Source of the DNA: Lama glama
Lineage: Eukaryota
NCBI GenBank assembly: GCA_028534125.1
Contig: CM052816.1
Span: forward strand, 35,156,001 to 35,220,000
Direction of reading: 5' to 3'
DNA: 64,000 nucleotides
Shown here: positions 17,674 through 64,000 of the stretch, one piece after another
How positions within the stretch are numbered: the first letter of the stretch is position 1
Layout of the letters: each line of letters begins with the position of its first letter
Program-made: the position numbers and the translations under genes
Notes under the pieces: generated by a model
The model's input: only the letters and a program-made list of their open reading frames with translations
Database searches by the model: none
What the model was told of the DNA's origin: nothing

Positions 17674-18066
<393 letters not shown>

Positions 18067-27124: not shown

Positions 27125-28500
27125 ACCAAAAAAACTGTGTTTTAATATTTTAAGACCTGATTTTCTTTTTCTCCTAATAAAAGTTATCAAAAAACTGGCC
27201 TCACACAGTTTCTGGAACTTCTTATAAATTCTTAATCTACTTTTCTACACTTTAGTTTGAATGTCAAATCATAATAAACCAAGTCCTATGAACGACTATT
27301 TATCTGCAAAGCTGTAAATCATGAATTTAAGAAAACAAGAATAGGAGATAAGATTTGAAAGAGATTTACTTATGATGTAACTCTTGCCCATAATTATTTT
27401 TATTTTCATTTGCTTTTTAATGCCACATGAGATCATCTGCGTTATTTCAGGGCTCCCTCCCTACTCCCACAGAACACTTTTGTATGTTGGAAGTGACAGT
27501 GGGAGCATCAAAGGCTAAAATATAAGTTGAAAATCTCTTTTATACAAAAATACAATTTTCTTCTTTTTTTGTTAATTAAAATACCTGATGCTTTGCCTTT
27601 ATTGTGTGTTAAAGATTGTTGCCTGAGTAGAATAAATATGGGAATGTGTTACATATTAAAAAGAAATTATAGCAAATGAATCCAAAATGTGAATGGACAT
27701 TTAACTCATCTGGTTAGGAAAATATTATTTTTTTCTAAGTAAGAGTAGGGTACATTGTCTTAGCTAAACTTTTAAAGAATAAGAACTAACATTAAGATAT
27801 CACCCTTTAGAAACTTGACAAGATGGTGGAAGTACAGTATAATTAGTTTTATTGAATACTGTTGTTTAACCATCATTCAGTAAGATACGATTATAAAGCT
27901 CTTTTGTGAATGAGGCATGACAAGAATAAAAAGTTTTATAATTTACTTTTATAGGTAATGAAGAAAGAAAAACACTTTATGATTTTACTATATAAATGGG
28001 ATAAGAATTTTTTTTTATCTTGCTTGGCTATAGCTGCTGTTACTAGGAATAATTAGTAATTTATGCATTACTCTGATATGCCAAGCCCAAATTCCAAGCA
28101 GACTTAAATTCTAATTAAAAGGTTCTTAAAAATATGAACACACATATACACTGATACATTTAAAAATACATATACAATCATCCCTGTTATAAAAATGTTT
28201 CACTGTAAAAGAATGTGTTTATATTTTTCTTCTAATAAGGCCCCAAAGTACATAAAATGCTTCCTGTAATTATTAACATGTAGTACAAAAAGTCTACACA
28301 TATATTTCTTCCTTCCTACATCAGTGTTACATGGGGTTTTATTATATACATATATGCAAAGCTTCATACGCATACAAAAAGTTAAATGCTGTACCCACCT
28401 TTCCATTTGTAAGAACAAATTTACATATGATATTCACTAGTATATCAGAAAGAAGCTAGACAATAAAGATTTTCAGTAGCACAGAGTTCATCCTACTTAC

Positions 28501-28593
28501 TGTTGAAGTGCCCAGTGAAGATTTTGGAGACCTAATCATTCCAGCAATTGAATGGCGAATAGACTCAAATTTGGATAGCCTCTCCTTTCTTTC
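28501..28593 (-). CDS. FER: FER coding exon (approx. exon 11): FX-to-SH2 linker, first exon shared by full-length FER and FerT
   Basis: Acceptor ctttcttaatctctccag|GAA, donor ACA|gtaagt. 93 bp, phase 0/0, translates [31 protein letters not shown], matching FER (human [31 protein letters not shown] as recalled). Not in ORF track. Confidence 0.97.
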
Positions 28594-31500: not shown

Positions 31501-33979
31501 TGAGGCGGGTAAATAAGAGGCAATGTTATAAAATAATACCTGATGTTATAAAGTAATATTATGAATAACATTCATAAAAATGCTGAAAGTACAGCTGTAA
31601 ATCTATTTTGAAAGAAAAGTTCTAGATGCACTTTCACATCTCACTGAAGGGCAGTTTCTCATAACTTTAGAATTAAATGAAGCAGGAGCTCTCAATATTT
31701 CTCTCTATAGACACATAAGATAACTAAGGAATTTTCATAATAATTAAAAGTCTACCTATGGTCAACTAAAAAAAAATTCTTGTAAAAAATAATTCCTAAA
31801 TTACGGTTCAAGTAAAACCATACCTATCAAGTTATCAAATTAATCTTTACTAAAACTCTCAAATTGCATTAAAAGAGGCTCTCAAGTTACCTCCCTCCAC
31901 TGTCCACTAAAGCATATGCAGAGATACAAAAAGTAAGTATTGAAATTTTGCTGACTGAAGTGATTGACAAAAATTAACAGCTCTTCCAAATGACAGTCTG
32001 TCTAGATGCTACAGTACATTACAAATTAATGATTTTAACCAAAAGGCACGTAACAGTTCTCAAAGCAAGACTTCTAAAGGAGGCACTAAGGTAGAAAGAA
32101 TAAGGTTCTTGATGTCAGAACGGATAAAGGGTATAAATCTGAGTAAATCACTTAACTACTCTGGCTCTCAGTTTCCCTATCAGTAAACAAGAGTACACTG
32201 GACTAGATTAAAATCTTCATCTCAACAATTCTGTGACCGGTGTTCAACTCCCCAGTCATTTGCACTGCACTGATCGTTGAGGAAACTCCCAGAGAAAAGC
32301 TCCATTGCACTAGGCTGGCAACCTTAGTAACATTCTGCCTGAGGATGCGCTCAGAACTTGCCCCTCAAAGGGAACGGTGAACTATGTGTGGTGAAAGGTA
32401 ACACCAGAACACTCTGTTAATAATAGCTCATGGAAAAAATAACCATGTATTATTTCTCACAGATTCCTGTAAATAAACTCAATTTAATAACATTCTTAGA
32501 AGGAACAATGAAAGTGATTATTTGGCCCTGTAGGAACAGTCAGATACTTATTCAAATCAGGAGGTAATATTATTCAAGAAAAAGATAATATTCGTGCTCA
32601 AACTCCAGGCTGAGTGCCAAATATCTTTGGGACTACTTATGCAAAGCAACCATGAAACTTGGAGGGATTTTGTGAGAAATAACTACAGGAAAATTATAAC
32701 CCTAGAGAAGATTGTTTCCTGAAAAAAGTTCTATACTGTTGATGACTCCATAATGAAAAAGAAATACTGCAAATATCAGTATGTCCCTCATCAAAGTAAT
32801 ACATTTATAAATAAACAAATAACTTAGTCTTTTGCAGATGTTGATTTGCTGGAGAGAATGAAGGATACACAGTTTCTAATCGCATCAGGATACAGAATTT
32901 AAGTATTAAAACAGTTTCTAAATGATTTATTTTAGCAATCAGGTTCTGACTGAAGACAAATCATTTTACAAGTATTCACTGCCTAGTAACCTAGTTTGTC
33001 ATGCTGTCTTTTTTCTTTGATGCTTGTATATTAAGAATATTTATTAAAAGAAAGACAGCCCCCTTGCTAGGTCAAGAATTATATTCTGAAATAATGAAAC
33101 TGGAAACGAAGTATGCAAGAGAAACATTTAAATGATTAAGAATATGTCTTAAAATCACAAGGCTAAAGAAATTTACAGTGTAACAGAATAGAGTTCAACG
33201 AAACCTAGGATGTAAAATGTCCTATCATTCTTCTTGCTTTTTTTGACTCTGTATCTCTTAAATGAGATGATTTCTCTAGGGAAACAAGTCCCAAGCAGGA
33301 GGCTTAATCAGCTCCCTTCCTGTTCAATATCTAAATATAATTCATGCCCCATGGTGCTTTTCTCAAATGTATGAGCAAAAATGTAGTATAATTCTTTTTA
33401 TAAATTATCCAGTAGTGCAAGATGCACACCAACCAGTTTCCTTTGGCACCTCACTAACTCCACAATTTAAGTCCTGACAGAGCTTGCTCAGTAAACCAAC
33501 TGTGCATTTCAGTTTTTTGAAAAATTACACTAGTATGAGTTAAATTATCAAGACTCATCTTAACTGAGATTGCACTTTTAAAACAATTAAGGGACATCAC
33601 ACTACGGCAGTCCATTTATCTTCTTTGATTAAACTAATAAATTATAAAACAAAAAATATATGAAAACGAGAATGAAAGTATTATTTCATTAGAGATCCCT
33701 ACGTCTAGAAGCCAAGGCACTTTACCAACTTCGCCACACCCTCACAAACTCCCAGGCTCATTACTCTAGTTAGCACGTTGTTTTGATCAAGTTAAAACAA
33801 ACCTCTGATCACTACCTGTGTGGGCTGCATGGGTCTTTCTCACAGCAGCTTCCTCGTCTCTCCTCTCTCTCCCCTCTCTGCCTCCCATTTTCCCTTCTTT
33901 CTTCCTCCCTTTCTCCCTTACCATAACGAACGGTAATAAATAGTAGCTATTATTACTTGAGTTTTACCAATATTGACAA

Positions 33980-34080
33980 GGACATCTGGGCTGTTTCCAT
34001 CTTCTGGCTAATGTAAACAATGCTGCTTTGGATATTCACATACATGGTACTTCAGTATCTGTTTTCAACTCTTTGGGGCA
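33980..34080 (-). mobile_element. L1 fragment
   Basis: ggacatctgggctgtttccatcttctggcta..aatgctgct..ttttcaactctttgggg: typical antisense L1 ORF2-end text. Confidence 0.7.
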
Positions 34081-34087
34081 TGTTATC

Positions 34088-34702
34088 TGTTACAGCAGGC
34101 AGACAGCTAGATGTGAGCACAGAAAGGGGGGCACAGGGCCAAATGACAGCAAACCACACCTCTTGTGAACAATGGAGGTCCTTGGGCAGACACAGAAAAT
34201 CAGGAACCTCCAAACTGATAAGAAATCACACATTCTGGGGTGACAAGTGTCCTGGAGGCAGGCAAAGAAAGGTAGGGAAAGGCAGAAATCTCCAGTGTTT
34301 GAATTTTCTTCATTATGCCTCATTACAGTAAAATCAGCCTTGCAGATTAGAAGTACCCATCATGCACCAACACCATGACACTTCTGACCTAGACTAAATA
34401 AGGACAAACATCCCCCCCTCCTTGGGAAGATGGAGCTGTGATGAAAATCAGGGAATATGAATCCAGATCCCTTCCTCCCCCGTGAATATTCTGCCCATTG
34501 ATGTTTATACCCTATGTAACCACAGGGTTACACAGAAACTCAGGTAGCTGCTCACCTGAGCCTGCCTGCTGTCTCCTTGAGAGCAAAGTATCTATCCTTT
34601 AATAAATGCTCACTTTACTTTCTTGACCTCCATGTCTCAGATTGTGAAAATCTGGACTGCTCAGTCCTCCTGCCCAAACCTCAAGTACCACCCTCCACAA
34701 CA
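34088..34702 (+). mobile_element. Probable solo LTR of an endogenous retrovirus (family not identified, 3' boundary uncertain)
   Basis: Begins TGTTAC with an abrupt rise in GC. Contains cctttAATAAAtgctcactttacttt (about 34600), a typical LTR poly-A context, and ends near ..ccacaaca. No clear TSD found. Confidence 0.55.
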
Positions 34703-37700
34703 ACACTGCACCACCTTGTGGTGGTGCGGGGAGGGCTTCATTTGGAATATCCTTCCCAAGTCTCCTTCTCTGATCCCCTGCTCCATTCAGTGAAGCCCCC
34801 TGAGTAAATACCGGTCAGTGTTAGCTGTCTCACTCTGTGGGTAGGGCTCCTCCAGATTCTAATATGTCACATCAGCCTACACACTATTATTACAAGAGTG
34901 TTAAAAGCTTGTTGAGTTGATTTCCTCTTACCCACTTTCATGGAAGATTCCTCTTATCATACAGTTTCACCAAGGATGGATGTAGTGGTAGGTCTTTATT
35001 TTTTCCCCCATGAAAGGCTTGTCATTCCTGGATTTTGGTTCATTTAGATTTCTTTCAGTCCTCAAATCTCTGGTGAGTATTTTTTAACATTATTTTTTAG
35101 CTTATCCTTATTTTGGTTGAGGTAAGAATGATGGCCTGGCGACTTTCCATACCCAAACAGGATGCAGAATTCCTATGTACTTAATTAAGACAAGTAATCT
35201 ACTAGTCATCATTTTATTTACCTTTATCCACAAACCAAGAAAATATAAAGACAGAATTTAAGGGTCTTTGGTATGACAAAGAAAAAGGCCATTAATTTAT
35301 CAAAGGTATAGACTTGAATTTAACTACCATTTCCTAAATTAGCCAATTACCACAAAAGGCCTTTTGAGTTAAAGCCTGTATTCCTCAGAAGATTATTTAA
35401 AGGGCTTAAGTGCGGACTTCTCAAAAGTTTTGCTTCTTGTTATCTTTGTTTGATTTTGTTGATTGCTTTGATGGGGTAGGGGGATGAAGTTCACTGGTTT
35501 TACATTTGCTGCAGAGGACCCCACAAGGACAATATAAAGACTTATTATTCACATATTTCATTTCTGTAAGTTTCCAACTTTATCTAAGAAATTTCCTGAA
35601 CGGTTTTACTGTTTTGATATTCTCATACTGAACATGTATATAAATAATTCTCTTATCTGTTCAGAGCTCCTTTTGTTACTGGAACTAGTAATTGAGAACA
35701 TTTGAAGTTTCAAGGCCTCAATCAAGATTTTACTTATTAGAATGTAATCAGAAACTGCATAACCTAAAAGAAAAGTCTAAGACTTAATAAAAGAACAGAA
35801 AATAGTGAATTTTAAAGAAAGGAATGTGGTGCTTATAATATAGCACTTCTATTATCAGCAAACAAAATCCAACTGGGCAATCTGTTTTAGACAGAAGTCA
35901 ACCAGGTCCTAAGCATTTGTGTCACCCTCAGGCCCTTTAAGAGAAACTGCCACACTATGGGATTGATGGTACCATCTGCCTGAGAATGAAGTCAATACAA
36001 TAAAAGGTAGAACTGAGGAATGAAGACAGACAAATTCTTGATGACATGGTTTGAATTTCTGATATATCCAGTTACATGAGTGGATAAACCCTCTTTTTAT
36101 GCTTTAACTAATCTGCCTTGGTTGACTATTACATAGAATGGACACACTAGGGTGTTCCTAGAATATCCAGTAGTAATTTCCAGATTTCTAATAAATGATT
36201 ACAAATATCTCAGTTCTCCCTGACAAAATAATACACTAATATTTTTAATGTTTTGGACCCACATTTACTTTTAATAGGAAAACAAATATTTTAAGACTGA
36301 AATACATGCATATAAATGTAAAACTTCTTTGTAAAATAAACACATTATGTTGAGATAATTACTCTTACTAATTCCCATTAATTTAACAGTTTTAGCACAT
36401 GGACAACAAAATAACTGCTTAACATGCTGGTGAAAACGTTATACTACAAAAGGTTCAATAATCCCACAGATTTTAGAACTGCCCAGTTAAACAAATTTAA
36501 ATAGATTTCTTAAATACGCTATGTCTCAGAGCCTCAATACTGCATTAGTACATGTGCTCTGCTTTTAGAGGAAATATTATTCTGCAAAATTCACTTCAGG
36601 AAAACCTGTTACAAAGCTTTCATTATGATGGGGTAGAAGGGAAAAAATTTTCCTCCACTTTTTCAGTCATGGTTTTTTCTTGGACATTATCATCACATAC
36701 AACAGCTCCAAATTAACTAATTCCAGCTCCTCTGTTTCTGGGGCCACACTCATCTGCCCCACTATCAATTTGTTTTCAATCAGTTCCACTATAACCATTT
36801 TTCAATCTTACTGAAATTTTAAGGCTTTGAGTTAGGCTTAGTAAGGCTAATTTCTCCCAATCAATCACCTTTTCTTTTCTTCTCTTCTTTTTTCTAACTG
36901 AGACGCCATGATACATCATTTCAATGACACACTTGCCAACAGTCTAAATAAACTCCCTTGCAATCCTTTCTCTCAGTTGAATACCCATGAAGCAAACCCC
37001 AACCGTGGATGCTCTAACTTTCTGATCTCTCTCAGCTTGTACTCAGCAACTCAACACTGCTGGAGAGAATCACATCATTATTACTTCAAATGGGCCCTAA
37101 ATATCTCACAAGACTACATTTTCCAGCCAACTCACTTCTTAACCCTCCCACTGTCACTGTCAACCATTTGAAACCTTTCTCACTTTTCTTACATATAAAA
37201 ACCACCTGTTCTACCCCCTCCAGCTTCTTTTGAAAGAAACTACAAGGCAGCAACCCCTTCGTTTTGCTTTTTCAAACCTACACATCCATTCCTTCTCTTC
37301 CCATTACTGGACACAGAGCTGTCTCTCTCCCATCCAAGGATGAGCACTCTACTAGTACCTCACCCCTTTCTGCCCTCCCAAGAACATTATGCCTTAAAAA
37401 ACATAATAGACCTAACTTTGATGTACTGTCCCATCAGCTTTTATATTTACTTAAGTTGGTCCCATAGGGGAAAAAAGTAGGAGAGGTTGTAAGAGAAAAA
37501 GGATGGAGAAGAGGAGGGAGGGAGGAATAAAGAGAGGAAGGAATGAACCTCTCCCTTCACCACACACCCTGCTCCACCTACTGCTTGCTCTTGATTCCTG
37601 CCCCCACCCTGCAAATTACTGAAAGAGTTCTCTATGTTGGATAGAACTCTCAGGACCAAGTGTCTATTCCTACATAACAGGCTCTAGTCTATTTAAGTTA

Positions 37701-39892
37701 ATAAAGCACCCACTGGAAATACTGGTATTTTCAGAAATTCATTAACTATTTCATCAATAGGCACTAAGCAGAGTAGAATCAATAAGAGATGAAGAGCATA
37801 CAAAACTACTGGCCTGGAACAGACATCGGGTAACTCTAAACATCAGACTTATAATCAGGAAGAACTCTGATTAAGTGTCATCATCCAAACCACAATTCCT
37901 CATCTGAAAATTAACCACCAAATAACCTTATCAACAGTTTCATAAAATTATTAACGGTAGAATAAAATGACCATTATCCTCTAAAATTGTATTTTTTATT
38001 AAGCAAAACTGTTACATTGGAGAAAGGTTTAGAGATATGAGAATCAGAACACCCTCTAAATCCCTCTGTTCCTGTTGGATTTATAGCTAGCCTTGTCCAT
38101 ATCTGTCCTTACAGAAAGTACCTTAATCCACATCTACTGCAAACACTCATAGAAAAGATAATAACAAAGAAAGCGTAATCTAGAAACACTAATTGTATTT
38201 TTTTTCATCCATCAGCTTGAGGCAAATCTCTATAGCTCTGATTACAGAGCTGACTGAACCCCCCAAATAAGGTCTTTCCAGGAAGGTTTCCTGTAGTTAT
38301 CTTAGTCAGCGCAAAACTTCATGAAGATTCTAGTAAAAGTATCTGAAAGGTTATGAATGGTGGTTAAATGTTTATTCCTGATGAGTTTTCCCAGCCTACA
38401 ACATTCTTTTTGGCTCTGATTATATACTTTCTAACTCAAGAAACAACTAGAGTTAAAAAGTGATTTGCTGGCTTGGAAGTAGAGGCCCTGAAAATATAGA
38501 GGCTGTATTTTATTAAAATAATGGCCATTGGGAATGTCAAATGTCTTGATTAAATTCCCCTAAGTTCGCATGACCCACATACATTAGAAAGCACAGTTTT
38601 TTTAAAGGACATGATTGTTCTTCACTGTCTTCATTCCTTAGTTAGGCTAGCACTCCTTTTCAAGATCCACAATGCAAATACTTCCTCCCTGTCAAGCATT
38701 AACTTCCTAAGGTAGGAGCTGCTGCAATGTGCTTTATCTGAGATTCAGAAATGTTTATAGAGAAGAAAAGTTTTCCTATTAAAAAGGAGGAAGGCTGATA
38801 CAAATATTTCTAATGTCTTGTAATAATCAGATGGTTTCACGACTTCTGAGGATGGGTGAGGAAAAGAGGAAGTTGTTAAGAGCCAATCAAGGTCTATTTA
38901 ACACGAGCTGCTCTGCTCAATGGCACAGAGCAAGCTCAGCAGATTTTTTTTTAACATAACCAAGAGAATTAGAATAACACTATATAGGTGTAGGGCATTT
39001 GATTCTAATATATACTTTCATGGTTTTCGACACTGCAAACATTTACAGCCTTGAAACACCTTTTAGCCATATTCAGAGTTTCTCAGAAGAAAAAATTCAC
39101 TCCTCAGAAAGCATTTTAAAGCCCCTTAATTCATGATAAGTTCACAATTCACATTTAAAATTCAAAGGGCATAAAGAACTTTATCTCTAACAGATGTGAA
39201 GATGAAAGAACTTAGGTATTACTTTTTTAATCTTCAATATAAGGCAAAAATACCAGTGATTCCCTTGGCCACAGAAGTCACTGAAATTATACGATTAGTT
39301 TGTATTATTTCTAATCAGAATACCTTTGCATAACTATACTTTATTTCAAGTAAAAGACTGATCTTTTATCAGTACTACTCAAACTGTAGTATAATATCTG
39401 TAGAACTGATTGACAGACACATGATATTTTCATTTGAAATAATACCAAGAGAAACAATAATTCAACAGAGGATGAATCTTAATTAAACAACAATCCTGAA
39501 CAAAGATAAAGAAAAAAGATTATCTCACCATTTTTTAATTTTAAAAAAGGAGTCTGGAATTTTCCTCTCATTAAGAAAATAAAACAAAAGCAAACAAAAA
39601 AACCCCACCAGATGCACTATGAAAGCATTATCAAAATATACCCTAGCCTTTCTTTGTTTCATCTAAAATTAAAGCAGATAAGTTAACCAAGGAAAATTAT
39701 ACAAGAAAGCAGGTAATTAGGAAGTGTTCTGTCAATGGGTGAAAGCCCAATGACATTCACAATGATCAGTCTCAACACTGGTATAGTGGTCCAACTAAAA
39801 TATACTTCATTTTCCACAGATCATTACCCTAACTTTTCCTTCCCTCCAAAACTTAGCTACTTGAAAGTGCTGACAGAAAATAAGAAAAATCA

Positions 39893-40018
39893 GGGGGAGG
39901 GTATAGCTCAAGTGGTAGAGCACATGTTTAGCATATACAAGGTCCTGAGTTCAATCCCCAGTACCTCCTCTAAAAATAAATAAGTAAGCCTAATTACCCC
40001 CCAAAAAAGAGGAAAAAA
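39893..40018 (+). mobile_element. tRNA-Ala-derived SINE (vic-1-type)
   Basis: gggggagggtatagctcaagtggtagagcacatgtttagcatatacaaggtcctgagttcaatccccagtacctcc, tail cctaattacccccc plus A-rich sequence. Flanked by aagaaaaatca / aagaaaaaaatca (TSD-like). Confidence 0.9.
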
Positions 40019-40089
40019 AGAAAAAAATCAATTATATAATCACTTCTGTTTATTCCTTGATATCTACTTGCTTCTCATGTTACTGAAAT

Positions 40090-41220
40090 TTTAATTTGTC
40101 CCCCAATATAACCTTGATGTCGCCAAAACCATTAGGTACTTTATTTGACTTTGCCAGGAATGTTTTCCTGTTGACTCTTACTCTCTTTTCCCTAGGCTTC
40201 AGTAACACCACTGTCTTGTTGGTTTTCCTTCTCTCTGTCTGGTTGTTCTACCTCATTCTTCCTTACAACATCCTCTAACGTTTGCCTGCCCCTTAAATGC
40301 CGGTCACCCAACACTACTATCCTTGGCCCTCACTTCTCTTTCCCTAATCAAATACGTTTATCTCCATCACTTCAATTACCACCTGCATGCTGATGATTCC
40401 CAACAGCTACATCTCTAGGGTGGACCTCTAACTAGAACTCCTCATCCTTCCCTCAGTCTAAGCTACTCCTTCTACTATGAGCCTTATCTTCTGTGACTAG
40501 CACCAACAACTACAGAACTCCCGAGGCAGAGATCTGGAGGTCTGTCTTGGTGCTCGTTCTCCCTCATATCCGTAGCCAGTCAGTCACTACATTCTAAAGT
40601 CTGTATCTATAAACTATCTCTAAAATCAGCCCCCTTCTTCCAGTGCCCCCTGATGTGATGTTAGCTCAGGCACCAGCATCACTGCCCTGGATTGTTCAGA
40701 GTGGTCTTTGTATAAAGGTAAACCAGGTCATTTCATTCTGCTGCTTACCATCTTAAACAGCTTCCCCACTCAGTTCACAATAAAATCCCAATGCATACAC
40801 AAAGGTTTTTCCATACTATAGCTCCTACATACTTATTCAATATCATCTCTCACCATTTGACTTTTCATGCCTATAATACATTCATTTATAAATACTGAAG
40901 ATTTAGAACGTATCATATTTTCTCTTACCTAAGTTATATATGATGCTTCTTCCTTTTCCTGAAATATCATTCCAATTTTTTTTTTTTGGCTTACCTACTT
41001 CTTATACCTTCTTCAGATCCAAAGCAGACTTCTACCCTGAGATTTGACACTCTAAATGAAGAGCACCCTTCTTATGCACTGACAGTATCCAGCCTTCACT
41101 CTCATAGAACTCATCATCACACTCTGGTTATAATTATCTGTTAACTTGCCTCTCACTCAACTGTGAGCTCCTTGAGGGCAAGGACTTTATCTCATTCTGC
41201 TTTGTATACAAAGCTGGGAT
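40090..41220 (+). mobile_element. L2 element 3' region, about 1.1 kb
   Basis: ttcaattaccacctgcatgctgatgattccc..ctgtgagctccttgagggcaaggact. Its terminus resumes briefly after the MLT at about 41748. Confidence 0.75.
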
Positions 41221-41225
41221 AATAT

Positions 41226-41747
41226 GTGTGGCATACAGCACTTTGGAAAATGGCCTCAACAATATCTCCATTGCACGGGCTCTTCCTGCCATGAAGACTT
41301 CGATTCTTCTTTCATTGAGAAGTGGGCATGTTCTCCTTGAATTTGGGCAGGTATGTGATTATGATGAAAGTGATACTACATGGCTTCTGAGGCTGGGTCA
41401 TAAAACCAGCTTCCTTCTGGTTCTTCTGGAATACACACTCTTGAACCTAGCCACCACAAGCTGTAACAAACCTCAAGTGACCCACAGACAGACCCATAAG
41501 GAGATACACAGAGCTCAGTTGAGCTTGCAGTGAGCAGCACCCAAACTGCAAATCATGAGTTATCCACTTAGGAAGCAGATTCTAAGGCCTCTAGTCCAAC
41601 TGTTTGAAGTTATGACCCATGGAACAAAGATAAGCCTTCTGCACTGATCTCTTCCCAAATGGAGTTTCATTATCAAATGAAATAATTCATTATATAAGCC
41701 ATTAAATTTTGCAGTGACCTGTTACATCGCAATAGATAACCAGAGCA
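41226..41747 (+). mobile_element. MaLR LTR (MLT1-type)
   Basis: Ends aagccattaaattttgcagtgacctgttacatcgcaatagataaccagagca, a characteristic MLT1 terminus. Internal ttctgaggctgggtcataaaa. Confidence 0.8.
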
Positions 41748-41929
41748 ATGCCTGTCATAGAGTACATAAACACACACACAGAGAATAACATATATACATA
41801 CACACAACACATACTCACACACTTACATAAAGTTTGGTGAATCCATGAACACATTTTCTAAATCAATTTTACTCTATAAGTTAGATTTGGTGGATAGAGC
41901 ACAGGACAATTTCCAAATATTTTAATTAG

Positions 41930-42720
41930 GATATTTAAATTATCTTAATTTTTATCATTAAAAACTGATATAAAAAATCAAACACAAGAAATATATAGTT
42001 TAAGGCAAATATCCCTGCAATCACCACCCTGTTCGAGTCATAGAACTTTGCCAAATACTGCAGAAGGCTTCCAGATGACATGTCCCAATTACAAGTACCT
42101 GTATCCTTCCCTCCAACGTAACCACCATCATCCCCTCCAAAACAAATCACATACTTGCATTATTTTTAGTCTTATTTTTAGTTTTCAGTGTGCAACCCTA
42201 GACAATATAATTCTAGTCTTGAACATTATAAAAATTTATTTAATGTATTTCTAAGCATCTTTTAATCTATAAATTCCTTCTCCATCCTTACATTTTCCTT
42301 ACAATGTAGCTGTTCAAAAACTGAGCCATCTGACTCAGAGTTTTGAACAGCATGGATATGGAAGATTTCATACTCATGGGGCAGTCCAACACGTCCTCTG
42401 TCCTCTTTTCTGCAAAGCGGCAGCTGGGATCAGAGGCTAGGTCAGACTTAGATTCAATACGTTTAGGGGGATCATGGTGGCATATATCAGGAGACAACGT
42501 TGCGATGTTAGCTGTTACTGATGCTCAAGGTCTATATTCACTAATTCATGGGGTATTATAAAATGGTGATACTGCTCTAAATTCGATCATTTGTTTCCCG
42601 ATTATTAGCTGGAATATTTCTATCAAAAGATGCTTTCTCTCATCACTTATTTGGTTAATTGGTAATTATTTGATAACACAGTTCATACAGGAAAGGCAGG
42701 ATAAATGTTTGACTTTTATA
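41930..42720 (-). mobile_element. Old L1 (L1MC-like) 3' region
   Basis: ctgggatcagaggctaggtcagacttagattcaa..tcatacaggaaaggcaggataaatg resemble the antisense L1MC 3' UTR. Confidence 0.6.
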
Positions 42721-42849
42721 TGAATTTTTTTTAAATTTAGAGTCTTTGAAAGCATAATTATAAACAAATCAAGAAAAGTTTTAAATAGACTCATTACTGT
42801 AATAATAATAATGATGGTGGTGGTGAGGAAGAAAATAAAAATAATCAAA

Positions 42850-43000
42850 GCTAATACTATGTAACAAACTTTTTAAAAGAGCTTTACATATATTAATTCA
42901 TGTAATCCTCACAACTACTTTACCAGGTAGGTACTATTATTTTTCTCCTTTTTACAGATGAGGAAAATGAAACAGTAAATGACTGAAGCAAATAGAGGTA
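42850..43000 (-). mobile_element. MIR SINE
   Basis: taatcctcacaac..aggtaggtactattat..ttttacagatgaggaaaatga. Confidence 0.8.
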
Positions 43001-45039
43001 TGGTTAATACACTCAACAAACATTCAAACGCGGTCCAGCAATAGCATACAGATATTCTCAAGTTCACTGATATCCTTCTATGGACCCTTATGGGATAATC
43101 TTCATTTAGCACCATGATATTTAGCTATGTGACAAAGAGAAATGAGTCCATAAAAAACTTAGAAAGTGGATAAACAGGGCTGACTCTATACCAAACCTAG
43201 CTTAGTTATCTATAACTCTTTTAAATTCTCTTCCTTGGTCATCTTCAATTTCCCGTCTCTCTTTGGATAAGTTTTAATTCAAGTAGATGTTTTAAATTTC
43301 TTTCCTACCCCTAGCTTGTCCAAATTCCTAATATGAACTTTAATGTACCTAAGTTCTTTTTCTAACTTAAGAAAGTTCATATTTACTTTTCCACATAAAA
43401 TAAGTTATTCTATCTCAGGCTCCAGTTAAAACTTACATGATGGTATCTTAATGCATTGACATAAGCTAATAACTATATTATTATAAAGATAAATTATAAT
43501 CATTAGTTTGCAAAGTTAATGTGAGAAATTGTCTCTAAAAATTTTTCTTGAAGTAATATTTTCTAAATGTCTGCTGAGACAGAAAGTTCCAAAGCTATTA
43601 CAGATAGTAATAATCTCTGTATGAGAACAAGGTATTTTAACTGGGTCTTTACAATTTAATGTATATAGATATTTCACCTATCATTTACTCATGTTTACTT
43701 GTAAAATTATTCTTCAGAAGTCCATTTAGGTAAATTACAAAAATATCATAAAACTGAAAAAGATTTTAAAGAAAAACCAAGATACATAAATTAGATACTG
43801 GCTAGTACATTATACATGCTTCTCATTATTTTAAAGCTTTTACACAAGAGTGAACAAGTTAAAAGTATAGAAAAACTGTATCAGCCAATGCATGCTTAAC
43901 GAAGGAATTCAACCAGCAAACTACTCAAGCAAATGAGTATCTGTCTGGTAAAGAGATTTGAAAAATTAAGTTTAAAAGTAACTATTTTTAAAGATTCAAA
44001 TCTGCTAGAAATAACGTTGATTAAAGAGTTTATCCTCAAATTCCCGTAACTTTAACAAAAAGCAATGTTACTTAGATATTATAGGTGTATAAGATTAAGA
44101 AGAACTTGTTATTTTAAAATGCATGTTGAAGAGAGATTTAAAAAAAACAAAGCAAAATAGAAGTTACACAAACATAACACTAATTTGGCCAATACTAACC
44201 ACAATGCCTAAGAAAGTAAAAACAATGCTTTCCTAAGGAGTTTTGCTTTTACATAAATACATAAACTAGAAGAGAAAAAAATGTACAAGTACGTAGACTA
44301 AATCTCATGTGGTTAGTCTGCATGAGAACTATTACAATTTCATACTCCTGTCTTCAAAAGGCCTATAGCAGTTCATTAAAAATCATCTGATAGATTAATA
44401 CAAGAATGTAATTTCACTGAAACACAACATGTAGTTCTCTTAATAGGACATGTGATGCAGATTTAAATGAGAAATCCGTGTGGGATGGCTATTTGTGATT
44501 ACCTAACTGGACTATTAATTCAAGTATAATTATTATATTTACCAAATAATTAATAATAAATTTTCACTTGAGACTTAATATTTTCACTTTCTTCATACTA
44601 AGGCTGAACTAAGTGTACAAATGGAGAATGTGAATCTTCTCAAATATAGATAATTAAATATGAGTCATCAAAATAAGCAAAGGATATTCTACTAGATAAT
44701 TACCTCAAACATAGAGAAAATATTTAAAATACTTTTGGACATTGCATTATGAAGTTGATATAACATTCTGTGAAAATTTACAAATTATTACTAGCATGCC
44801 TACAAAAGTATTTTTCAAATGCAATTCTCAATTATATAATTTCCTAAATATTTGTTACCATTTCTTGATTCATGACAAAAGTTTACTTCGGCATGTAATA
44901 TTAAAAATAACCTTAAAATAATCTAAAACTTTATTTAAAACATGCATTTTTGAGAAAATGTATTACCTAAAAAGTTCTCCTTAATGTTTTTGCTATAAAA
45001 GCAATAAAAAGATAAAAACAACAAATTACCAGCATATTA

Positions 45040-45386
45040 CATTGGCTGGCACATATTTTCTGTAAAGCGTAGGACAGGAAATATTTTCGGTTCCTGGGCC
45101 ATGTGGTGTCTGTCACCACTACTCAACCAGGTCGATGTATGCAGCGCTGTAGTAGGAAAGCAGCTCCAGTCAATATATCACAAATAAGCAAGGCTGTGTT
45201 CCAATAAAACTTTATTTATAGATACTGAACTCTGGTTTCATATAAACTTTATATGGCACAAAGTATTATCTTTCTTCTGATTTTTTTTAATCATTTAAAG
45301 ATATAAAAGCAAATCTTAGCTTTTGGCCACCCAACAATAGACAGCAGGCCAGATTTGGCACAAAGGGCCATAATTTTTTACCCCTA
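45040..45386 (+). mobile_element. MER58-like hAT-Charlie DNA transposon (MITE)
   Basis: ttttctgtaaag..aaatatttt..gggccat..ctactcaac..ggctgtgttccaataaaactttattta..ggccagatttggc..cccct. Confidence 0.8.
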
Positions 45387-45429
45387 TTACATCACTTAAA
45401 GTACAGAAACTATACAACAGAGGCTATCT

Positions 45430-45680
45430 AAGCAGTTGTAAAGAGAACCGATTCTGCAGTCAGACTGATGGGTTCAAATCCTGGATCTCCTACTTCCAAT
45501 CCATATGACTGTAGACAAGTTGCACAAGACTCTGTACATCAATTTCAGTAATAATAGTACTGCCTATCAGAAATAATAATAGTTTTGCCTAATAGGGCTG
45601 CTGTAAGGATTAAATGTGGCATGGAAAGGACTAAGCAAAGCTCCCAGTATCCAGTAACTAGTTAATCTTCTATAAATATG
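45430..45680 (+). mobile_element. MIR SINE
   Basis: gcagtcagactgatgggttcaaatcctgg..agggctgctgtaaggattaaatg. Confidence 0.75.
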
Positions 45681-45715
45681 TTGCCAATACTATAATCAAA
45701 ACACAGGAAAAGACG

Positions 45716-46900
45716 CAAGCAATAGAAATAAAAGCAAAAATAAACAAATGGGACCTGATTAGCTTACAAGCTTTTGCACAGCAAAGGAAACCATAAGCAA
45801 AACAAAAAGACAACCTACAGAATGGAGGAAAATATTTGCAAAAGATGAGACTGACAAGGGCTTAATTTCCAGGATGTATAAACAGTTCATACAACTTAAT
45901 AACAGAGAAACAAACAACCCAATCCAAAAATGGGCAGAAGATCTAAATAAGCAATTCTCCAATGAAGACATACAAATGGCCAACAGGCACATGAAAAGAT
46001 GCTCAGTATCGCTAATTATCAGAAAACTGCAAATCAAAACTACAATGAGGTTATCACCTCACACCAGTTAGAATGGCCATTATTCAAAAGTCCACGAACA
46101 ATAAATGCTAGAGAGGCTGTGGAGAAAAGGGAACCCTCCTACACTGCTCGTGGGAATGTAGTTTTGCGCAGCCATGATGGAAAACAGTATGGAGATTCAT
46201 TAAAAGACTAAAAATAGACTTACCATATGATCCAGCAACCCCACTCCTGGGCATATATCCAGAGGGAACCCTAATTTTAAAAATATATGCACCCCAATGT
46301 CCATAGCAGCACTATTTACAATAGCCAAGACATGGAAACAACTTCACTGTCCATCAACAGTTGACTGCATACAGAAGTTGCAGTATATTTATACAACGAA
46401 ATACTACTCAGCCATAAAAAAGAATAAAATAATGCCATTTGCAGCAACATGGATGGACCTGGAGAATGTCATTCTAAGCGAAGTAAGCCAGAAAGAGAAA
46501 GAAAAATACCATATGGTATCACTTACACGTGGAATCTTTAAAAAAAAAAAAAGACAAACTTATTTACAAAACAGAAACAGACTCACAGACAGAAAACAAA
46601 CATGGTTACCAGGAGGGGAAGGAGGTGGGAAGGGATAAAGTGGGAGTTCGAGATTTGCAGATACTAACTACTATATATAAAACAGATAAACAACAAGTTT
46701 ATCTTGCATACCTGTGTATAGCACAGGGAACTATATTCAATATCTTGTAGTAACTTATGATCTAAAATGAATATGGAAACGAATATATGTATGTTCCTAT
46801 ATGACTGAAGTATTGTGCTGTACACCAGAAATTGACACAACACTGTAAACTGACTATATTTCAATAAAAATATATTTAAATAAATAAATACATACATACA
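45716..46900 (+). mobile_element. Young 5'-truncated L1 closely related to 9144-10934, frameshifted
   Basis: ORF2 peptides [72 protein letters not shown] at 46863-46868 and (TAAA)/(TACA) tail. Confidence 0.93.
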
Positions 46901-47629
46901 TTTTAGATTCATTTCTGAAAGTTTATAGGTTTCCATATGGAAGCACTGGCTTTTTTGTGTTTCATTAAAAATCTGTTATAAATTAAACAAAAAAACCACA
47001 GGAAAAGTTCTATCTCATAAAAGTATATATTGTAATATGCAAAGACATTCTATTTGCAAAATGCCTCCAGACAAAATTTGGGGAAAAAGTCCTTTAAAAA
47101 ACAGTCACAGTATTTCAGAACTGAGAGGTATCATAAAAATAATCTTGTTTTACCAGAAGTTTGGAGATGTTTCTGGTTCAAGTCTGAGTTAAAGTCAAAA
47201 CCAGGACTAGAATCAAGTGTCATCATCTGAATTAAGCGATCAGAAAGTCCTATGTTTCTTGTACCTATATAGCAATTTAGTGGACATTTATTGACCAAAA
47301 TTTAAACAACATTCCTTTCTGAGAGGTTTGGAAAGGACTATTTGGAAAATATGAGGTCAGGGGCTGGCAAAATCTACTCCAGGCAGGCAAAACAGCGTGA
47401 TGATTAAGAGCAAGAATTTGATATCAAAGCTGAATTTAAATTGTAGCAGTTTGACCACATGACCTTGGGCTAATTTAATATTTCTGAGGTTCATAGAATA
47501 GATACTTAAAAAATATTTGAATGAAAGGCCAAAAGAAGCAGCTTCTCTCAAAGTTGAGGGTCTTACCCACAATCAAAGCTTCAACTTTTGAAAACTTCCT
47601 TGATAATAAAAGAGAATAAACACACAAGC

Positions 47630-47905
47630 TCTAATGGGTTGGACGTGACTCCCCCTGTAAAAGGAGAACCTGCAAAGGAGTTTTTGCAGATATAATTAAA
47701 TTAAGGATCTCAAAATGAGGTGATCCTGGATTTTCCAGGTGGGTCCTAAATCCAGTGAGAAGCTTCCTTAAAATCAGAGTCTCCAGAAGGAACCAAGTCT
47801 GTAGACACTTTTGAGTTCTAACCAACTGTGAGAGAATAAATTTATGTTGTTTTAATCCATCAAGTTTGTGGTAATTTGTTATAGCAGTCTGAGGAAACTA
47901 ATACA
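47630..47905 (+). mobile_element. MaLR LTR (MLT1C/D-like), internally deleted
   Basis: tttgcagatataattaa..ggtgggtcctaaatcc..aactgtgagagaataaattt..ttgttatagcag..ggaaactaataca. Confidence 0.85.
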
Positions 47906-49096
47906 CATCTGACAAAGAATCACTAAATACTTACCTTGTAAAGTGATCATCAGCTATCCTAAACATCAAAAAACAAACAAAAAACCCTTATATGAATTCT
48001 ATTATTTAGGAAAACTGGTCAAAAATTGCATTATTTCCATAAATTCTATACAGTGAGATTAAAATGTGTATATGTGCATTTTTATTGTTCATTTCTCACT
48101 CCAGGTTTTAGAACCTTCTCTCTCAATAAAACAACACTTTGCTCCAAAATTCACAGTCAGAAATATAGCTGCAGTTTCAAAGACAGTTTTTCTCAACAGG
48201 AACCCTGATAACTCCAGAAACTATGCAGCAATATTCACAGCTCAGCAGTAGCAAGGTCACAGGAACGTCTCCCTTGGGCTTTGCATTCATTTACAGTGCA
48301 GGAGCTGGAACACTGGCTAACTTTTTTATTTGCTTTGCTAGCATCTATTTTCACACTAATTAGCACATGTGGCTTGAAGTTTCTTTTCATATTTTGGGGG
48401 TCCAACATTGTTTCCGATAATAAGGTGGGAGCAAAGAAAGAAGGAATTTCAAAGGTAACCAACTACTAAGAAAAAATAAGTTGATCAATATAAGCTTATA
48501 TAGATAGGGCATGTAATAAAAAGATTAACATTGAAAATAAGTATAAAAATTACTAGGTCAGTCTTTATTCCATTATACTTTTTTTTCCACAGAGCAGTCA
48601 TGTAACAAAACTGTTTGATACGGAGTCAGTCATAGAAGAAATTTTCCAAGTTAGAGAGAGATTTATCTACTTCAGTCTTTTCACTTTATAATAGATGAGA
48701 AAATGAAGATCAGAGGAGGTAAAATAATCTTACTCGTGACACACATATGATGACAAAGCTAACTCCATCCTTTCTCCCTTTTCCCCTATAACACATTGCC
48801 TAGATTACATCCCCAAAGTCAACCAAATGCTGGGCACTGGTCATTCATTCAAAAATTTATGACGGGGGGAGGGGGGGAGGAAAGGCTCTGATTACTAAAG
48901 TTAAATTGTTACACTAAAACAAGATTCAAAATTCATAACATTTAATACAAAACATGTTCATTTATACCCCCAAAATGATACACTATTTTGCATATCACAC
49001 CAAGATTGTGATTAAAAAAAAAAGAAAAATACCAGTAAAACTTAATTTAAAATAATTATAGGACCTGGAATGCTGCTAATATGAAGATACACTCTC

Positions 49097-49141
49097 ACAC
49101 ACACACACACACACACACATACACACACACACACACACACA
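49097..49141. repeat. (CA)n microsatellite, about 22 units with one interruption
   Basis: cacacacacacacacacacacacatacacacacacacacacacaca. Confidence 0.95.
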
Positions 49142-52100
49142 AGCATTTTAGGCCTGGAATGGTGAAAGGTTAGATATGACTGAAAATTACAAAACATTCA
49201 TGACAAATAAAATTATCTTTTTTTGGCCATTAAAGATAAAACACCAGGATAGGGGAAAGGCCTTTGAATACAGACACCGGAAAGTTCGGATCCACATTTC
49301 AGACATGCTCCATTCAGTGCCTATAAATTCATTAAATCTCAAAATAGTTCAGTGAGAAGTCAAATGATTTTTTTAGATATTATTAAATACTCAAATAGGT
49401 GAATAAAACTGAGAGTATCATTGTTATTAGCAATTGCTTCTCTCACTCCCTACCTCTGCTAAAGGTTTACGGGCTATGTCAAAGAGGATAGCCATAATAT
49501 ACACTTGAAATCTCTGTTGAAAAAATACTGACACACTTAGAAAATGGCTCTAATGCGGAAGGTAGCTAATATTTACTGAGCACTAACTATGTGCCAAGAG
49601 CCCTGTACCCTGTCCATGCATTCCTCTGTACATTTAACCATCTAGAACCCTATATTGCAGGTCCTGTTACCTCATTTTATAAAGCCAAAGATTGGAGTGG
49701 TTAAATAACTTTTGCAAGAACAATAATAAGTTCTTACTCAGAATACTAATTCTTACATTCAAATCTATGATATAATCTCAGTCATACCATTTGTTCTCTT
49801 CCCTACACTGATTGTGCAGCAACAAGATAATTTATGGAACCGAAGGACTAATATCTAGAATTTTTTAAAAGCAGCTTCAGTGCTCTAAGAATTATACTTA
49901 AATTCAAAAAATTACCCACAAGTAGCCTTAAGGCTTTAAAGGTCAAAATAAAATCAATCAAGTAGCTAATTATATCTTTAAACTTAAGTAGAATGGAGAA
50001 TTTTTGGAAGAATAACTTACTTCTGAACTAAATGGCACTAATGAGATGTCTCACTTGGCCATATCTTTATAAAGGGTTATCCTTACAAAACAAATTTCTG
50101 TTTCTGTCTTCTTACATAGATCACAATGAACATAATCTGGCCTTATCTTGCTAAATCAATAAGGTTGATTAACTGTTTTGGTTTCCTCCATCTGTATTTT
50201 GTACCTTTTTCTATCCCAGATTCCTCCCTTGGTTTTAAAATACGGGTTATCACTTATTGTTACTGACAATGCCTGAGTCTGCTCCACCCCCTCTCCTCTG
50301 CCACCCCACGCCTACACTCACTATTTACCATTTGCTCTTTCTAATCTACAGCACTCTGAGAAATCACGATGATAAGTTCATTAAACTGCTTTTAAATAAG
50401 AGTAAAAAGATCTAAGATTCTTTCTGAGTAAGGCGTATGATCTGTATTGTGTGAACTTAGTGACATTTATCTGTGAAATCCAAATAGGTAATTTTTTTCT
50501 CCTAACTTCAGTTTCAGAGTAGAGGTCACAGAGAGAATGACCTGTGGAGAAATCGGGTGTTTTTCTACTTGTTCTTATATGTAAAACTATACTTGGATGC
50601 CTTAAATTCGGGTAGCATTTTCCAGGTTTTCACTCCCATCCTGGAAAGAGGTCCTGCCAAATCTGTTGCAGCCTATTCAGTGTTCATTTTATCTGAGCTC
50701 TGTGGAAAGCAGATTTCTCTGGTGGTCTCTACAATTCCCAGCCCTTGGTATGCACGTCCTGCATGATCACTAGCACAGTGATCAGGCTATGGGTTATGTT
50801 ATAACTGCCTCCTAATCATCTCTACAAGAAAGTTTAGGACACCCCAAACTTCAAATATCTGAAATCAAGAGCCCCTCATCTGCTTGCTCCTCCTGCTCTG
50901 GTGACCTCGTGAGCACCTTCTAAAACATACCAACAAATAAATAATAACAATGAAAATAGCAGAACTATGCTGAGTCACATTTTTCTATTTTTACTAAAAT
51001 TTTACTTTTTCAGTCAGAATTGCACTCAGAGACATGTGGCAAAACTGTGCCTAAAATTAAACTAACTTAAAAAGATTCTATGTTTCTTAAAAAACAAGAA
51101 GTTTGTAAAGGAAGTATTCCAGAGCTGGTGCCAGAAACTCAAGAGGGACGAGGGCCAAAGAGTTCTCTTCCTCCTTTAAGAGGAAGCCTCTTGGTCTAAA
51201 CTTGCTTACCAGCCACTGTCCCGTGGTCAACATTATTTTTAGACTGATGGACACAGAAACTAAGGTTTTGGATGGGTCTTCCACATGATCGCTAAAGTAA
51301 TCCCAAATAGCTAAGGGTAGAAAAAGAGACAATGAACCAGAGAACACAATCTTTGATAAATGAAGAGGAATGAACAGAAATATGAAAGAGCTGTCGTCAA
51401 TGAGAAGGAGTAAATGTAGTACAACCGAACCCCACAAGCCTCAAAAACACAGAGGCTTTCACATAAAGTGAATGAATTAAAAAGGCAGTATTAAGGAACA
51501 CTTCCCAACGCTGAGTCATATGGGATGTGAGAGGGTGAATGACCTTCTCTTGAAAAGTTTGCTTACCAGAATAAGATGCCAGTGCTCACAGTAAAAAATT
51601 CTGACAAGATGAAGAGCTGTACAAGGATGCTTCAGAGAAGTGAAAATACAGTAAAGAATGGGTCTGCCATATACAAAGCAGAATTAACATGACATACTAC
51701 GTGACGTGACGGAGGCAGCAGATGGCTAGTGACAGCAAGATGGTGGGGGCAGGGGGCGTTACCAGAAGAAGACAAACTAGGCCTGGACCCTTTATCAGAA
51801 TCTACATTTCTGGTAAAAGGGAATAGCTCCTGCCTAAAATTAGCCCTCAAGAGTCAGTATGTATCTTAACGGTGATAAGAATTTACTAGAAACATCATCA
51901 AATAGTATCAGAGAATAAAAGCCAAATTAGTCAGAACACCCCTATGAAAAGAGGACAAATAGTGACCCCACAACGATACAGAAGCCTTCTCCTTTGATCA
52001 GCTGAAGTATGAACTCATCACATAAGCTAGTACATGTGAATCTGAACATGTGTGTGTCTGAGTGGGTGTAGTCACATCTGCCTAAGCAGACTGATGATAA

Positions 52101-53812
52101 ATGTTTAAATATTTAAAAGTATATTTATAGATTTATCATAAACTTCTTATATTTAGGCCAGCATTAGCTAATAACCAAAGATAAGCTATCATGGTTATGG
52201 GTAGAAGTTCACAGGTATGGGAGTTCAATAAGTATTTACTTGGTGGATTGTCTGAAAATTTAATGATAGTGTGCATACCTGTATTAAATGTCTTCCTCAG
52301 GATGGTGCCTGTTAGCCACCAACACAGAAACTCTTATCCTATTTACTTAAGATAGTGTAGTAATAATGCAGGATGATGTAGAAATTTATACAATAAATAA
52401 TAAAATTCTAATCTTTTCTACTTTATTTTGAAAACATGCAACAGAGCTGACACAAAATAAAAGTAAAAGTTAAGAGGACTAAAAATAATTTCAAAAATGA
52501 GAAATAAAGAACATAAAGTTGTCTGAAAAAACAATGATGAGATATATTAAAAATACATACAAATACAGAAAAATATCAAATAAGGATCGTAAAATATATC
52601 AGGAAATAAAGAATGAAAAGGAAGCAAGACTTTATTTTAAAGCTACAGAAAATTAGAGTTGTGTATGTCACTAGCCAACTACGTGAGTCACTAATTATCT
52701 CAGGCTTCAGGGGCACTGTTATATAAAAATGATAAACTGGACAAGATGACACCAACAGATTCTATATCCTCTAACATTTTTATGACTCTCTAAATCAAGA
52801 TGACACAAAACTTACAAATATAAGGAATGATTCTTATACTTATGAAAAATACTTACCCAGTGACTATAAGACAGTAATATTTAGAACACCATAACTTACC
52901 AAATTTAGTAACATTAAAACAGGAATTATATGTTGATTAAACGCTCTTCAAATAGAAGAAAAAAATACTGACACTATATAACCACTGAATATTCTTTTTG
53001 ACATTTACCATTCTTATCTGAAGGCCAGAATTTATTTCTCCCAATATAGTGAATCTAAAAGAATGACAGCCTAAAATATAGGGTCATTAATTAAGGGACT
53101 TGCAGGATGCAGGCAATTAAGTTTAAACTGCAAAATAACATATAAGCATAATCCTTATCTAAGGTAGGACTCCATTCCTATTACTCATAGAAATGATATG
53201 TTATGCATTAAAATATTAAGAAGTTAGTGTGTTCCAGGTTACTAAATTAAACCACAAGAACTGATTATAAAATTAGTACTGAACTATACATCATAGTGAA
53301 AAATTTTATTAGGTATTATCACCGATTTAATACCTATCAAGAAAAATGTTATTTTCCTTTGCTCACAGAAATTGAAAATAAGAAGGTAACATTAGGTTCA
53401 CGAGCCAGTAAGAAAACTGAAATCTGGAGAAAAGAAATCTTAATACCACCACAGATTTTAAAATAAGCAATGATTCTCCTCAGATATCCAACAAAACTGC
53501 ACTCGTTTCCCTTCTCATGTTTCGGAATATTAGAAAGCACGTATTTTTCTCACAGCCGAGAGGGGAACAAAGGGAACAAATAAGATAAAAGTGGAAGACA
53601 AGCCATTCTCACTTTTTAATGGGCTTGGATTGGCTGCTGTTAGAATAGAAGTGATAGAATTCCTTCAAAAGAATTATCTACTCTCACATCCAGCAGCCAA
53701 AGAGAAGTATTCTTCCCGGTTATGAAGAAAAGCCATAAAGCAGAGGCTCTGCTGGGCTCTCAGACGACCTCTGGGCCCAGAGCAGAGCAGGCCTGAGAGG
53801 CCTCCCCCTTAC

Positions 53813-53950
53813 CTGGTCTCTTTTCACTTCTGATGTGGAAGGAAAGGCGGCCTCCTTGCTGTACCTGACAGCACATGTTTGACAGGACTGGGAGTCAGAA
53901 CTGGGCTGCAGCTTACCCTCACAACAGAAACATTTATTTTTCCTCAACAT
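53813..53950 (-). CDS. FER: Alternative first coding exon of testis-specific FerT isoform (unique 46-aa N-terminus)
   Basis: gagATG at 53950, 46 open codons MLRKNKCFCCEGKLQPSSDSQSCQTCAVRYSKEAAFPSTSEVKRDQ, ending at strong donor CAG|gtaagg in phase 0, so it joins exon 28593 in frame. Resembles the human FerT N-terminus as I recall it (..KCPHC..SQSCKTCA..PSTSEVHRDQ). Lies in the intron upstream of the ERKERL exon, where the FerT exon is known to be. Confidence 0.9.
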
Positions 53951-54049
53951 CTCAGACCTTAGCCAAAAGCTGGTGATAGTGGGCCCGCAGAAGCCAATCT
54001 GTCCACAGACCTTCCTGTCTGAGCCAAAAGCAAGATAGAGAAGACAGAT

Positions 54050-54088
54050 CTGCACCTCCTGTTTGACTCTATCTCCCCCTGTTGGCAG
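54050..54088 (-). promoter_or_regulatory. Pair of CTCF/BORIS-like motifs just upstream of the FerT ATG (putative intronic FerT promoter)
   Basis: Minus strand CTGCCAACAGGGGGAGATAG (54088-54069), followed by weaker TCAAACAGGAGGTGCAG (54066-54050), compared by eye with core CCASYAGRKGGCRS. The FerT intronic promoter is reported to be BORIS-regulated. Confidence 0.45.
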
Positions 54089-54607
54089 GGAAGTATACCA
54101 GTCAGTTCTGGGTTACAGGCATTCACATATCCAACAAATGCTATCAGCCAAGAGGAAACCTTCATGCATTAAGTGAAGACCCATTATTTAAGAAATAAAT
54201 CTGTTTTCTAAGTGACTTTTTAAATAAAGTAACTCATTTTCTTCCTGTACAACAAGAAGTCTTCTGCTTTAGGAACTTGAATCTTAAGTTCTCTGAAAAC
54301 AGACCAAACTTTCAAGCACTTTTTGAAACTAAACCTTGCAAAAAGCTTTGCTACAAAGCCTCTCTTAACCCAGTGGTTTTTAATTAATTTTACTGAGGTA
54401 TAAATCTCCAATGTTAATAATTCTGAATCAAAGAGAAAGAATCTACACACAAATGATCTTTAAGGTTTCAATAAAAATAAAAATTAAAGATTTCCTTGCA
54501 AGACTGTGTCAAACTTAATAACATGCAATGAAGTGACAGAGCTGGAGAAGCAGCAGAGTGTCGGGAGACTTAAAACCATAAATGTTTAATTTGAAAATAA
54601 GACTTCT

Positions 54608-54763
54608 GGGGGAGGGTCTGGCTCAAGTAGTAGAGTGCATGCTTAGCATGCATGAGGTCCTGAGTTCGATCCCCACTACCTATTAAATTAAATAATTAAA
54701 AAAACAAATGAACAAACCTAAATTATTTCCCCCCTAAACAACAAGAACAAATTTTTAAAAAAA
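54608..54763 (+). mobile_element. tRNA-Ala-derived SINE (vic-1-type) with 15-bp TSD
   Basis: gggggagggtctggctcaagtagtagagtgcatgcttagcatgcatgaggtcctgagttcgatcccc. TSD GAAAATAAGACTTCT (54593-54607) / GAAAATAAGACTCCT (54764-54778). Confidence 0.92.
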
Positions 54764-58271: not shown

Positions 58272-58290
58272 GAGCTCCACCTGCTGGTAA
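58272..58290 (-). promoter_or_regulatory. Strong CTCF core motif
   Basis: Minus strand TTACCAGCAGGTGGAGCTC. Core CCAGCAGGTGGAGC differs from CCASYAGRKGGCRS at one commonly tolerated position. Confidence 0.5.
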
Positions 58291-63837: not shown

Positions 63838-64000
63838 TACTTCAAACACAATGCAGATCTCAAACATGCTTATCTATCATCTAAACTAATAGGATACATT
63901 TTTAAAAGATTTATGCTTAATGAAAAATAATACCAAGACCAAGAATAAAGACTAGCCGAGAAATAAGCACACATTAAGTCATCATTCCTGTGATACTCAA

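Follow-up and report, generated by a model that had tools for sequence, protein, structure and literature searches.

Does the FER gene of the llama possess the alternative first exon from which the short kinase FerT would be made, and, if so, what does this exon encode? The window (the whole 64,000-nt stretch of Lama glama DNA that was analyzed) contains, on its minus strand, a stop-free frame of 46 codons, running from an ATG at 53950 to a Gln codon that ends at 53813 and is directly followed by GTAAGG. The first-pass annotation had described such a frame with a phase-0 donor, about 25.2 kb upstream of the exon at 28593, and both were confirmed when the sequence was re-read. The candidate exon is located in the FER intron that precedes the exon encoding residue 413 onward.

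Gene Context of the Candidate Exon

The features of this part of the gene are as follows.

53813..53950, minus strand: protein-coding stretch of the FerT-type alternative first exon, 46 phase-0 codons from ATG to Gln, based on the frame and on pig, horse, and primate matches
53807..53812, minus strand: 5' splice donor GTAAGG, second among 3,664 minus-strand GT sites when scored with a textbook donor matrix; RNA contigs of runs X3 and X5 break at 53812
28594..53812, minus strand: predicted first intron of FerT, 25,219 nt, with the junction placed according to orthologous proteins
28501..28593, minus strand: first exon common to FER and FerT (FER residues 413-443), a 100% tblastn match to Vicugna FER (P0007)
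17740..17943, minus strand: SH2 exon 1 (68 codons, FER residues 444-511), from tblastn with alpaca FER P0007
6541..6663, minus strand: SH2 exon 2 (41 codons), from tblastn with alpaca FER P0007

All four exons of the window, the first exon and the three FER exons, are in phase 0. The exon at 28593 is preceded by a pyrimidine-rich AG and is open in phase 0 for 31 codons. Upstream of 28600, five donors score within 1.5 bits of this one, and only the one at 53812 closes an ATG frame of at least 25 codons. Thirty-four coding bases into the exon comes a second good donor (GTAAGC, 53911-53916, minus strand, rank 20 of 3,664); splicing from it would lead out of frame, and no RNA contig broke there in four runs.

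By sequence, the host gene is the camelid FER. Among the 120 matches listed for the 68-codon SH2 exon, seven FER proteins, all from Camelus or Vicugna, show 100% identity, and none of the remaining 113 exceeds 97%; the best solved structures for this exon are those of the human FER SH2 domain. The FER exon preceding residue 413 was not found in the 64-kb window and therefore lies beyond position 64000. A run of 500 N (an assembly gap) interrupts the window at about 9860-10360, between LINE-like flanks. Short elements at about 54610-54690 and 27040-27230 appear to resemble the camelid tRNA-derived SINE.

Orthology to Short FER Isoforms

Annotated short FER isoforms of other mammals begin with a similar peptide. 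The N-terminus of the 456-aa isoform of pig and warthog (P0124; Sus scrofa X4, XP_020940270.1, and Phacochoerus X2) matches the window peptide at 32 of 46 positions without gaps (70%), and that of the horse isoform of the same length (P0172; Equus przewalskii X3, XP_070425696.1) at 28 of 46, also ungapped (61%). The exon is also carried by a giant panda isoform (P0138; Ailuropoda X4, XP_034512492.1; 27/47) and by a Rhinopithecus bieti record (P0191; UniRef A0A2K6LLM4), with a 43-aa tail and 26 matches of 46 across one 3-residue gap. Tail identity with the window thus ranges from 57 to 70%. In all of these, the tail runs straight into the same exon as the one at 28593. The Rhinopithecus record is a partial sequence of 245 aa lacking the first SH2 exon. 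In the pig and horse isoforms, the SH2 and kinase Pfam domains are present and F-BAR is absent; the 46 residues of the llama tail and the 410 common residues add up to 456 aa, exactly the length of these two proteins.

This likeness is not due to chance, since the pig tail finds 32 matches at the exon, whereas no other position out of 127,720 (six frames, ungapped) gives more than 11, and the maximum over 100,000 shuffles is 12. The pig, horse, and panda isoforms were uncovered by listing the cluster members of FER hits, independently of the tail. A phmmer search with the tail itself gave 14 hits, nine of which are orthologues: the Rhinopithecus record and eight mammalian read-through ORFs that contain the same exon and also track the flanking DNA of the window. 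The remaining five were excluded as cysteine-rich repeat matches, with 6-26 matching stretches each; one is a cysteine-rich protein of Hexamita. Word-indexed protein searches with the window tail and with pig residues 1-46 returned no tail match, because the pig and horse isoforms are hidden as members of clusters. The ESM Atlas, searched with the pig tail, gave no usable hit. Two sequences of the FER cluster, P0150 and P0153, are succinyl-CoA:3-ketoacid CoA transferases, which suggests a chimeric clustering link.

These alignments establish 53813-53950 (minus strand) as the camelid orthologue of FerT-type first exons. The orthology had been proposed in the first-pass annotation, and it is borne out by the isoforms of pig and warthog, horse, panda, and snub-nosed monkey, which share both the peptide and the junction. 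The connection with the FerT studied in human and mouse is made through the 43-aa primate record (not named FerT), the position, the architecture, and the tail length. As outlined in PMC10049441 and PMC10832218, the human and mouse FerT begin with an alternative exon housed in the intron upstream of the SH2-proximal exon, as in the window; a short unique tail, retained SH2 and kinase domains, and a CTCF-like motif near the start are further common traits. The tail is 46 aa in the camelid, in contrast with 43 aa (PMC7826929) or 44 aa (PMC10049441) for FerT, and the activity of the camelid promoter, its control by BORIS, and its tissue restriction are proposed by analogy only. The earlier estimate of about three additional residues is correct relative to the primate record but does not single out the llama, as 46 aa is also the length in pig and horse.

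It had also been supposed that automated annotation could miss this exon. RefSeq contains the isoform in pig, warthog, horse, and panda, so the kind of exon is already known and the camelid orthologue is an addition to it; the supposition does apply to the seven camelid FER proteins listed, none of which is of the 456-aa type. Of the most relevant cluster, 15 of the 77 members were covered. A camelid copy could exist among the other members of this cluster. No published camelid FerT was found among open-licence papers, judged by their titles or the beginning of their abstracts.

We are nearly certain that the locus represents the camelid FerT orthologue, in which a germ-line intronic promoter would give rise to a 456-aa FerT. 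Transcription would start in male germ cells from a promoter within the intron, some 180-200 nt before the ATG; by analogy with human, CTCF/BORIS would activate this promoter through a conserved motif. The new exon would then be joined in phase 0 to the one at 28593. The predicted product is a kinase with the 46-aa tail in place of the 412-residue F-BAR/coiled-coil part, and with SH2 and kinase domains kept. The exact junction, the promoter, the BORIS control, the germ-cell restriction, and the FerT protein itself are what we infer from the orthologues and the literature. The importance of the exon on its own is modest: the camelid FER model would gain a sperm isoform, and studies of camelid fertility could draw on the exon for primers and for a peptide antigen.

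Evolution of the Tail

The first exon is less conserved than the exons that follow. Its identity to pig is 70% vs. 94-100% for the next three exons, and to horse, 61% vs. 87-98%; the comparison with pig agrees with the initial remark that it is more diverged than the SH2 exons. An alignment of 12 non-duplicate rows was used, from which three near-duplicates (P0201-P0203) had been dropped and which included no rodent. Its non-cysteine columns show a mean pairwise identity of 57%. The invariant columns are M1, C7, C10, C23, C26, S38, T39, and E41, the last three forming a Ser-Thr-x-Glu motif near the end of the tail. The idea of a fast-evolving exon, put forward in the first-pass annotation, thus holds for the tail apart from M1, the cysteines, and Ser-Thr-x-Glu. 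With horse as the outgroup, nine changes were counted on the camelid side vs. two on that of pig (p = 0.065), and eight vs. four in the common part, which does not support a camelid-specific acceleration. The camelid row has six private residues; the other rows have 0-12.

A Conserved Cysteine Motif

The tail contains a conserved pair of CxxC motifs.

53873..53932, minus strand: C-x2-C-x12-C-x2-C motif, codons 7-26, possible C4 zinc finger, invariant in 12/12 rows

The spacing is exact in every row, and the cysteine columns reach 264/264 pairwise identity, whereas the residues between the four cysteines average 49%. Nine of the 12 rows were found with a cysteine-rich query, which favors cysteine conservation, but pig, horse, and panda were found independently and keep all four. 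Insertions and deletions in the tail occur only after C26 and never between C7 and C26. The other cysteines of the tail, eight in seven columns, are all lineage-specific. The mouse tail is perhaps more diverged around the second cysteine pair.

Structure prediction gives a less uniform picture. With three sequences, AlphaFold produced a ribbon-like model with a mean pLDDT of 70; with 15 sequences, the five models scored 70.6-72.2, and in the best one a helix (residues 24-35) begins with the second cysteine pair. This topology differs from that of the 3-sequence model. With a short bridge close to the first pair and a helix opening at the second, the 15-sequence model matches the treble-clef layout as defined in PMC4999995. 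The top fold matches are mostly zinc-binding proteins: YfgJ, PriA, and TFIIB for the 3-sequence model, and TraR, YbiI, A20, and GATA for the 15-sequence model. All of them are weak (Foldseek E of 0.28 or worse; Z of 3.3 or lower, the best 3.1-3.3); for example, TraR (5w1s_M) aligns with the 15-sequence model over 38 residues with a Z of 3.1 and an rmsd of 1.9. Pfam gave sub-threshold matches only, to Prok-RING_1 (E = 0.0034) and, for the pig tail, to a double zinc ribbon (E = 0.1). No significant match to the tail was obtained in sequence and structure searches of the PDB (best sequence E = 0.19).

Peptides with two CxxC pairs tend to be modeled as zinc-finger folds; therefore, it is the conservation pattern, and not the model, that carries the argument for zinc. 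From this pattern, the four cysteines most likely constitute a single C4 metal (zinc) site, an assignment towards which we lean only slightly. The two CxxC pairs are shared with C4 treble-clef zinc fingers (TraR/DksA, GATA, A20) and with zinc ribbons (YfgJ, TFIIB). Unlike these, the FerT-type tail is without a significant sequence or structure match, and its metal binding is predicted only.

The cysteines could instead be S-acylated, so as to anchor the protein to membranes, or could become linked as disulfides while sperm mature. The basic residues before the first cysteine pair would suit this alternative, as would the weakness of the fold matches and the differing topologies of the two models. 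On the contrary, acylation would presumably need no fixed spacing, and both pairs and the 12 residues between them are strictly maintained, in a segment devoid of indels and in a tail where additional cysteines come and go between lineages. This alternative is considered possible, at roughly one chance in three.

The zinc-finger reading can be carried further, with chances that we regard as even: the FerT tail would be a small zinc finger of the C4 type, probably similar to a treble clef, which a germ-line promoter provides as a replacement for F-BAR. It would target or regulate the kinase in spermatids and sperm, would possibly be sensitive to zinc or redox state, and would have a fast-evolving surface. 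No such reading was encountered in the literature covered (open-licence papers, mostly through titles and the first lines of abstracts), and the parts available of PMC10049441 and PMC7826929 describe the tail by its length, without a fold. As the tail is the sole difference between FerT and somatic FER, the cysteine pattern would, if the reading is true, matter more than the exon. It would offer a testable handle on the localization and regulation of FerT in sperm and in tumors that re-express it, as well as a FerT-specific surface. According to PMC11480905, mouse FERT reportedly causes the capacitation-associated tyrosine phosphorylation.

RNA Evidence

Nineteen of the 24 listed sequencing runs contain part of 53813-54120. 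Six are recorded as RNA, and five of these six, from two studies, are labeled "reproductive system metagenome"; two of the five are among the mapped runs, which include no somatic run. Four of the 24 runs (X3, X4, X5, and X14) were placed on 52600-54560, and the small-share rows X12 and X13 were left unused. The RNA of the mapped runs comes from a relative that is ~96% identical to the window and differs from it in species. The mapped stretch excludes the acceptor at 28593, and the junction 53813-28593 is deduced from the orthologous proteins.

In X3 and X5, which belong to two studies, the exon contig ends at 53812 and overlaps the intron contig by 30 nt; therefore, a second path of the assembly graph leaves one base after the donor G. 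Such a path fits splicing to an acceptor exon starting with GA, as the exon at 28593 does. The coverage by RNA libraries with a branch at the donor is, like the frame, the donor, and the orthology to annotated short FER isoforms, a direct observation. In X5, the depth is 21.3 over the exon vs. 8.1 over the intron. A SNP at the donor was considered as the cause of the contig break and rejected: it would give a second contig of 61 nt and a broken intron contig, and no bubble was seen. The intron contig of X5 is unbroken from 53841 to 53497. In X4, a single contig (53366-54132) reads through the donor, and X14 passes it by 6 nt. In X3, the exon (depth 3.1) is covered no more deeply than the intron and the upstream stretch (3-4), which shows that this run contains DNA or unspliced RNA.

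Over the 138 coding nucleotides, the relative differs from the window by three replacement and two silent changes, without a clear signal of purifying selection. In a rival reading, the exon is orthologous but no longer productively used in camelids, either decaying or retained in sperm as an unspliced intronic element. In its favor, the divergence of the exon (5/138) is about equal to that of the flanks (12/345 and 24/767), the contigs of X4 and X14 read through, and the listed camelid proteins lack the 456-aa form. However, the window preserves the ATG, the frame, the donor, and all four cysteines, none of which is altered in the relative; moreover, two studies show contigs that branch precisely at the donor, with an excess of exon over intron depth in X5. 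Disuse of the exon is thus judged very unlikely.

Even less probable, to the point of being negligible, is an internal cassette exon to which an upstream exon of full-length FER would be spliced. An 18-nt loose end of an X5 contig at 54148 might suggest one, as might the AG sites at 54141, 54079, 54019, and 53958, each of which has 10-11 pyrimidines in 15 nt. However, none of these four sites gives the phase-0 entry required by the preceding FER exon, and no position of the window matches the loose end with fewer than four mismatches. Met1 is invariant in 12/12 rows, and every annotated orthologue begins in or just before the exon, without F-BAR residues.

Probable Promoter and 5' Region

For the FerT-type first exon, the region upstream of the ATG comprises two further features.

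53951..54148, minus strand: probable 5' UTR of the first exon, with an approximate upper limit, from RNA contig ends (weak) and from panda P0138, which includes the orthologue of about 54111-54043
54070..54088, minus strand: CTCF/BORIS-like motif in the probable promoter/5' UTR, third of 126,928 positions with a CTCF matrix, a putative binding site

The 5' ends of RNA contigs from three studies fall at 54127, 54132, and 54148, a weak hint of a transcript start. The loose end of X5 at 54148 is partly self-complementary and is probably a library artefact at the 5' end.

The block around the CTCF-like motif is more conserved than the coding exon in the comparison with panda: 14 consecutive codons across the motif translate identically, and 20/23 do so over the block, vs. 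57% for the exon. In another mammal, nine consecutive codons across the motif translate identically. An IUPAC CTCF pattern needs three mismatches at 54070-54088 and shows no enrichment in the window (37 matches vs. 28.4 ± 5.3). The motif is a lead, not proof. In PMC10049441, PMC7826929, and PMC10832218, FerT is described as driven by an intronic BORIS-dependent promoter; the last of these places the start of human FERT at a CTCF/BORIS site within the intron, supported by CAGE from testis and K562. The same intron of the window also contains two stronger CTCF-like motifs on the minus strand, at 58272-58290 and 34706-34724, ranked first and second with the same matrix.

Two upstream ATGs, both out of frame, are present in the probable 5' UTR: 54128 (Met-stop) and 54122 (six codons). 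The former is the apparent counterpart of the ATG at which the longer panda isoform P0138 begins in frame, 60 codons further upstream; in the camelid, this ATG lies out of frame, with a stop directly behind it. Just downstream of the exon, a pseudo-translation of the intron at 53352-53549 (minus strand) is ~65% identical to P0180 over 108 positions, similar to the exon; this conserved stretch is possibly regulatory.
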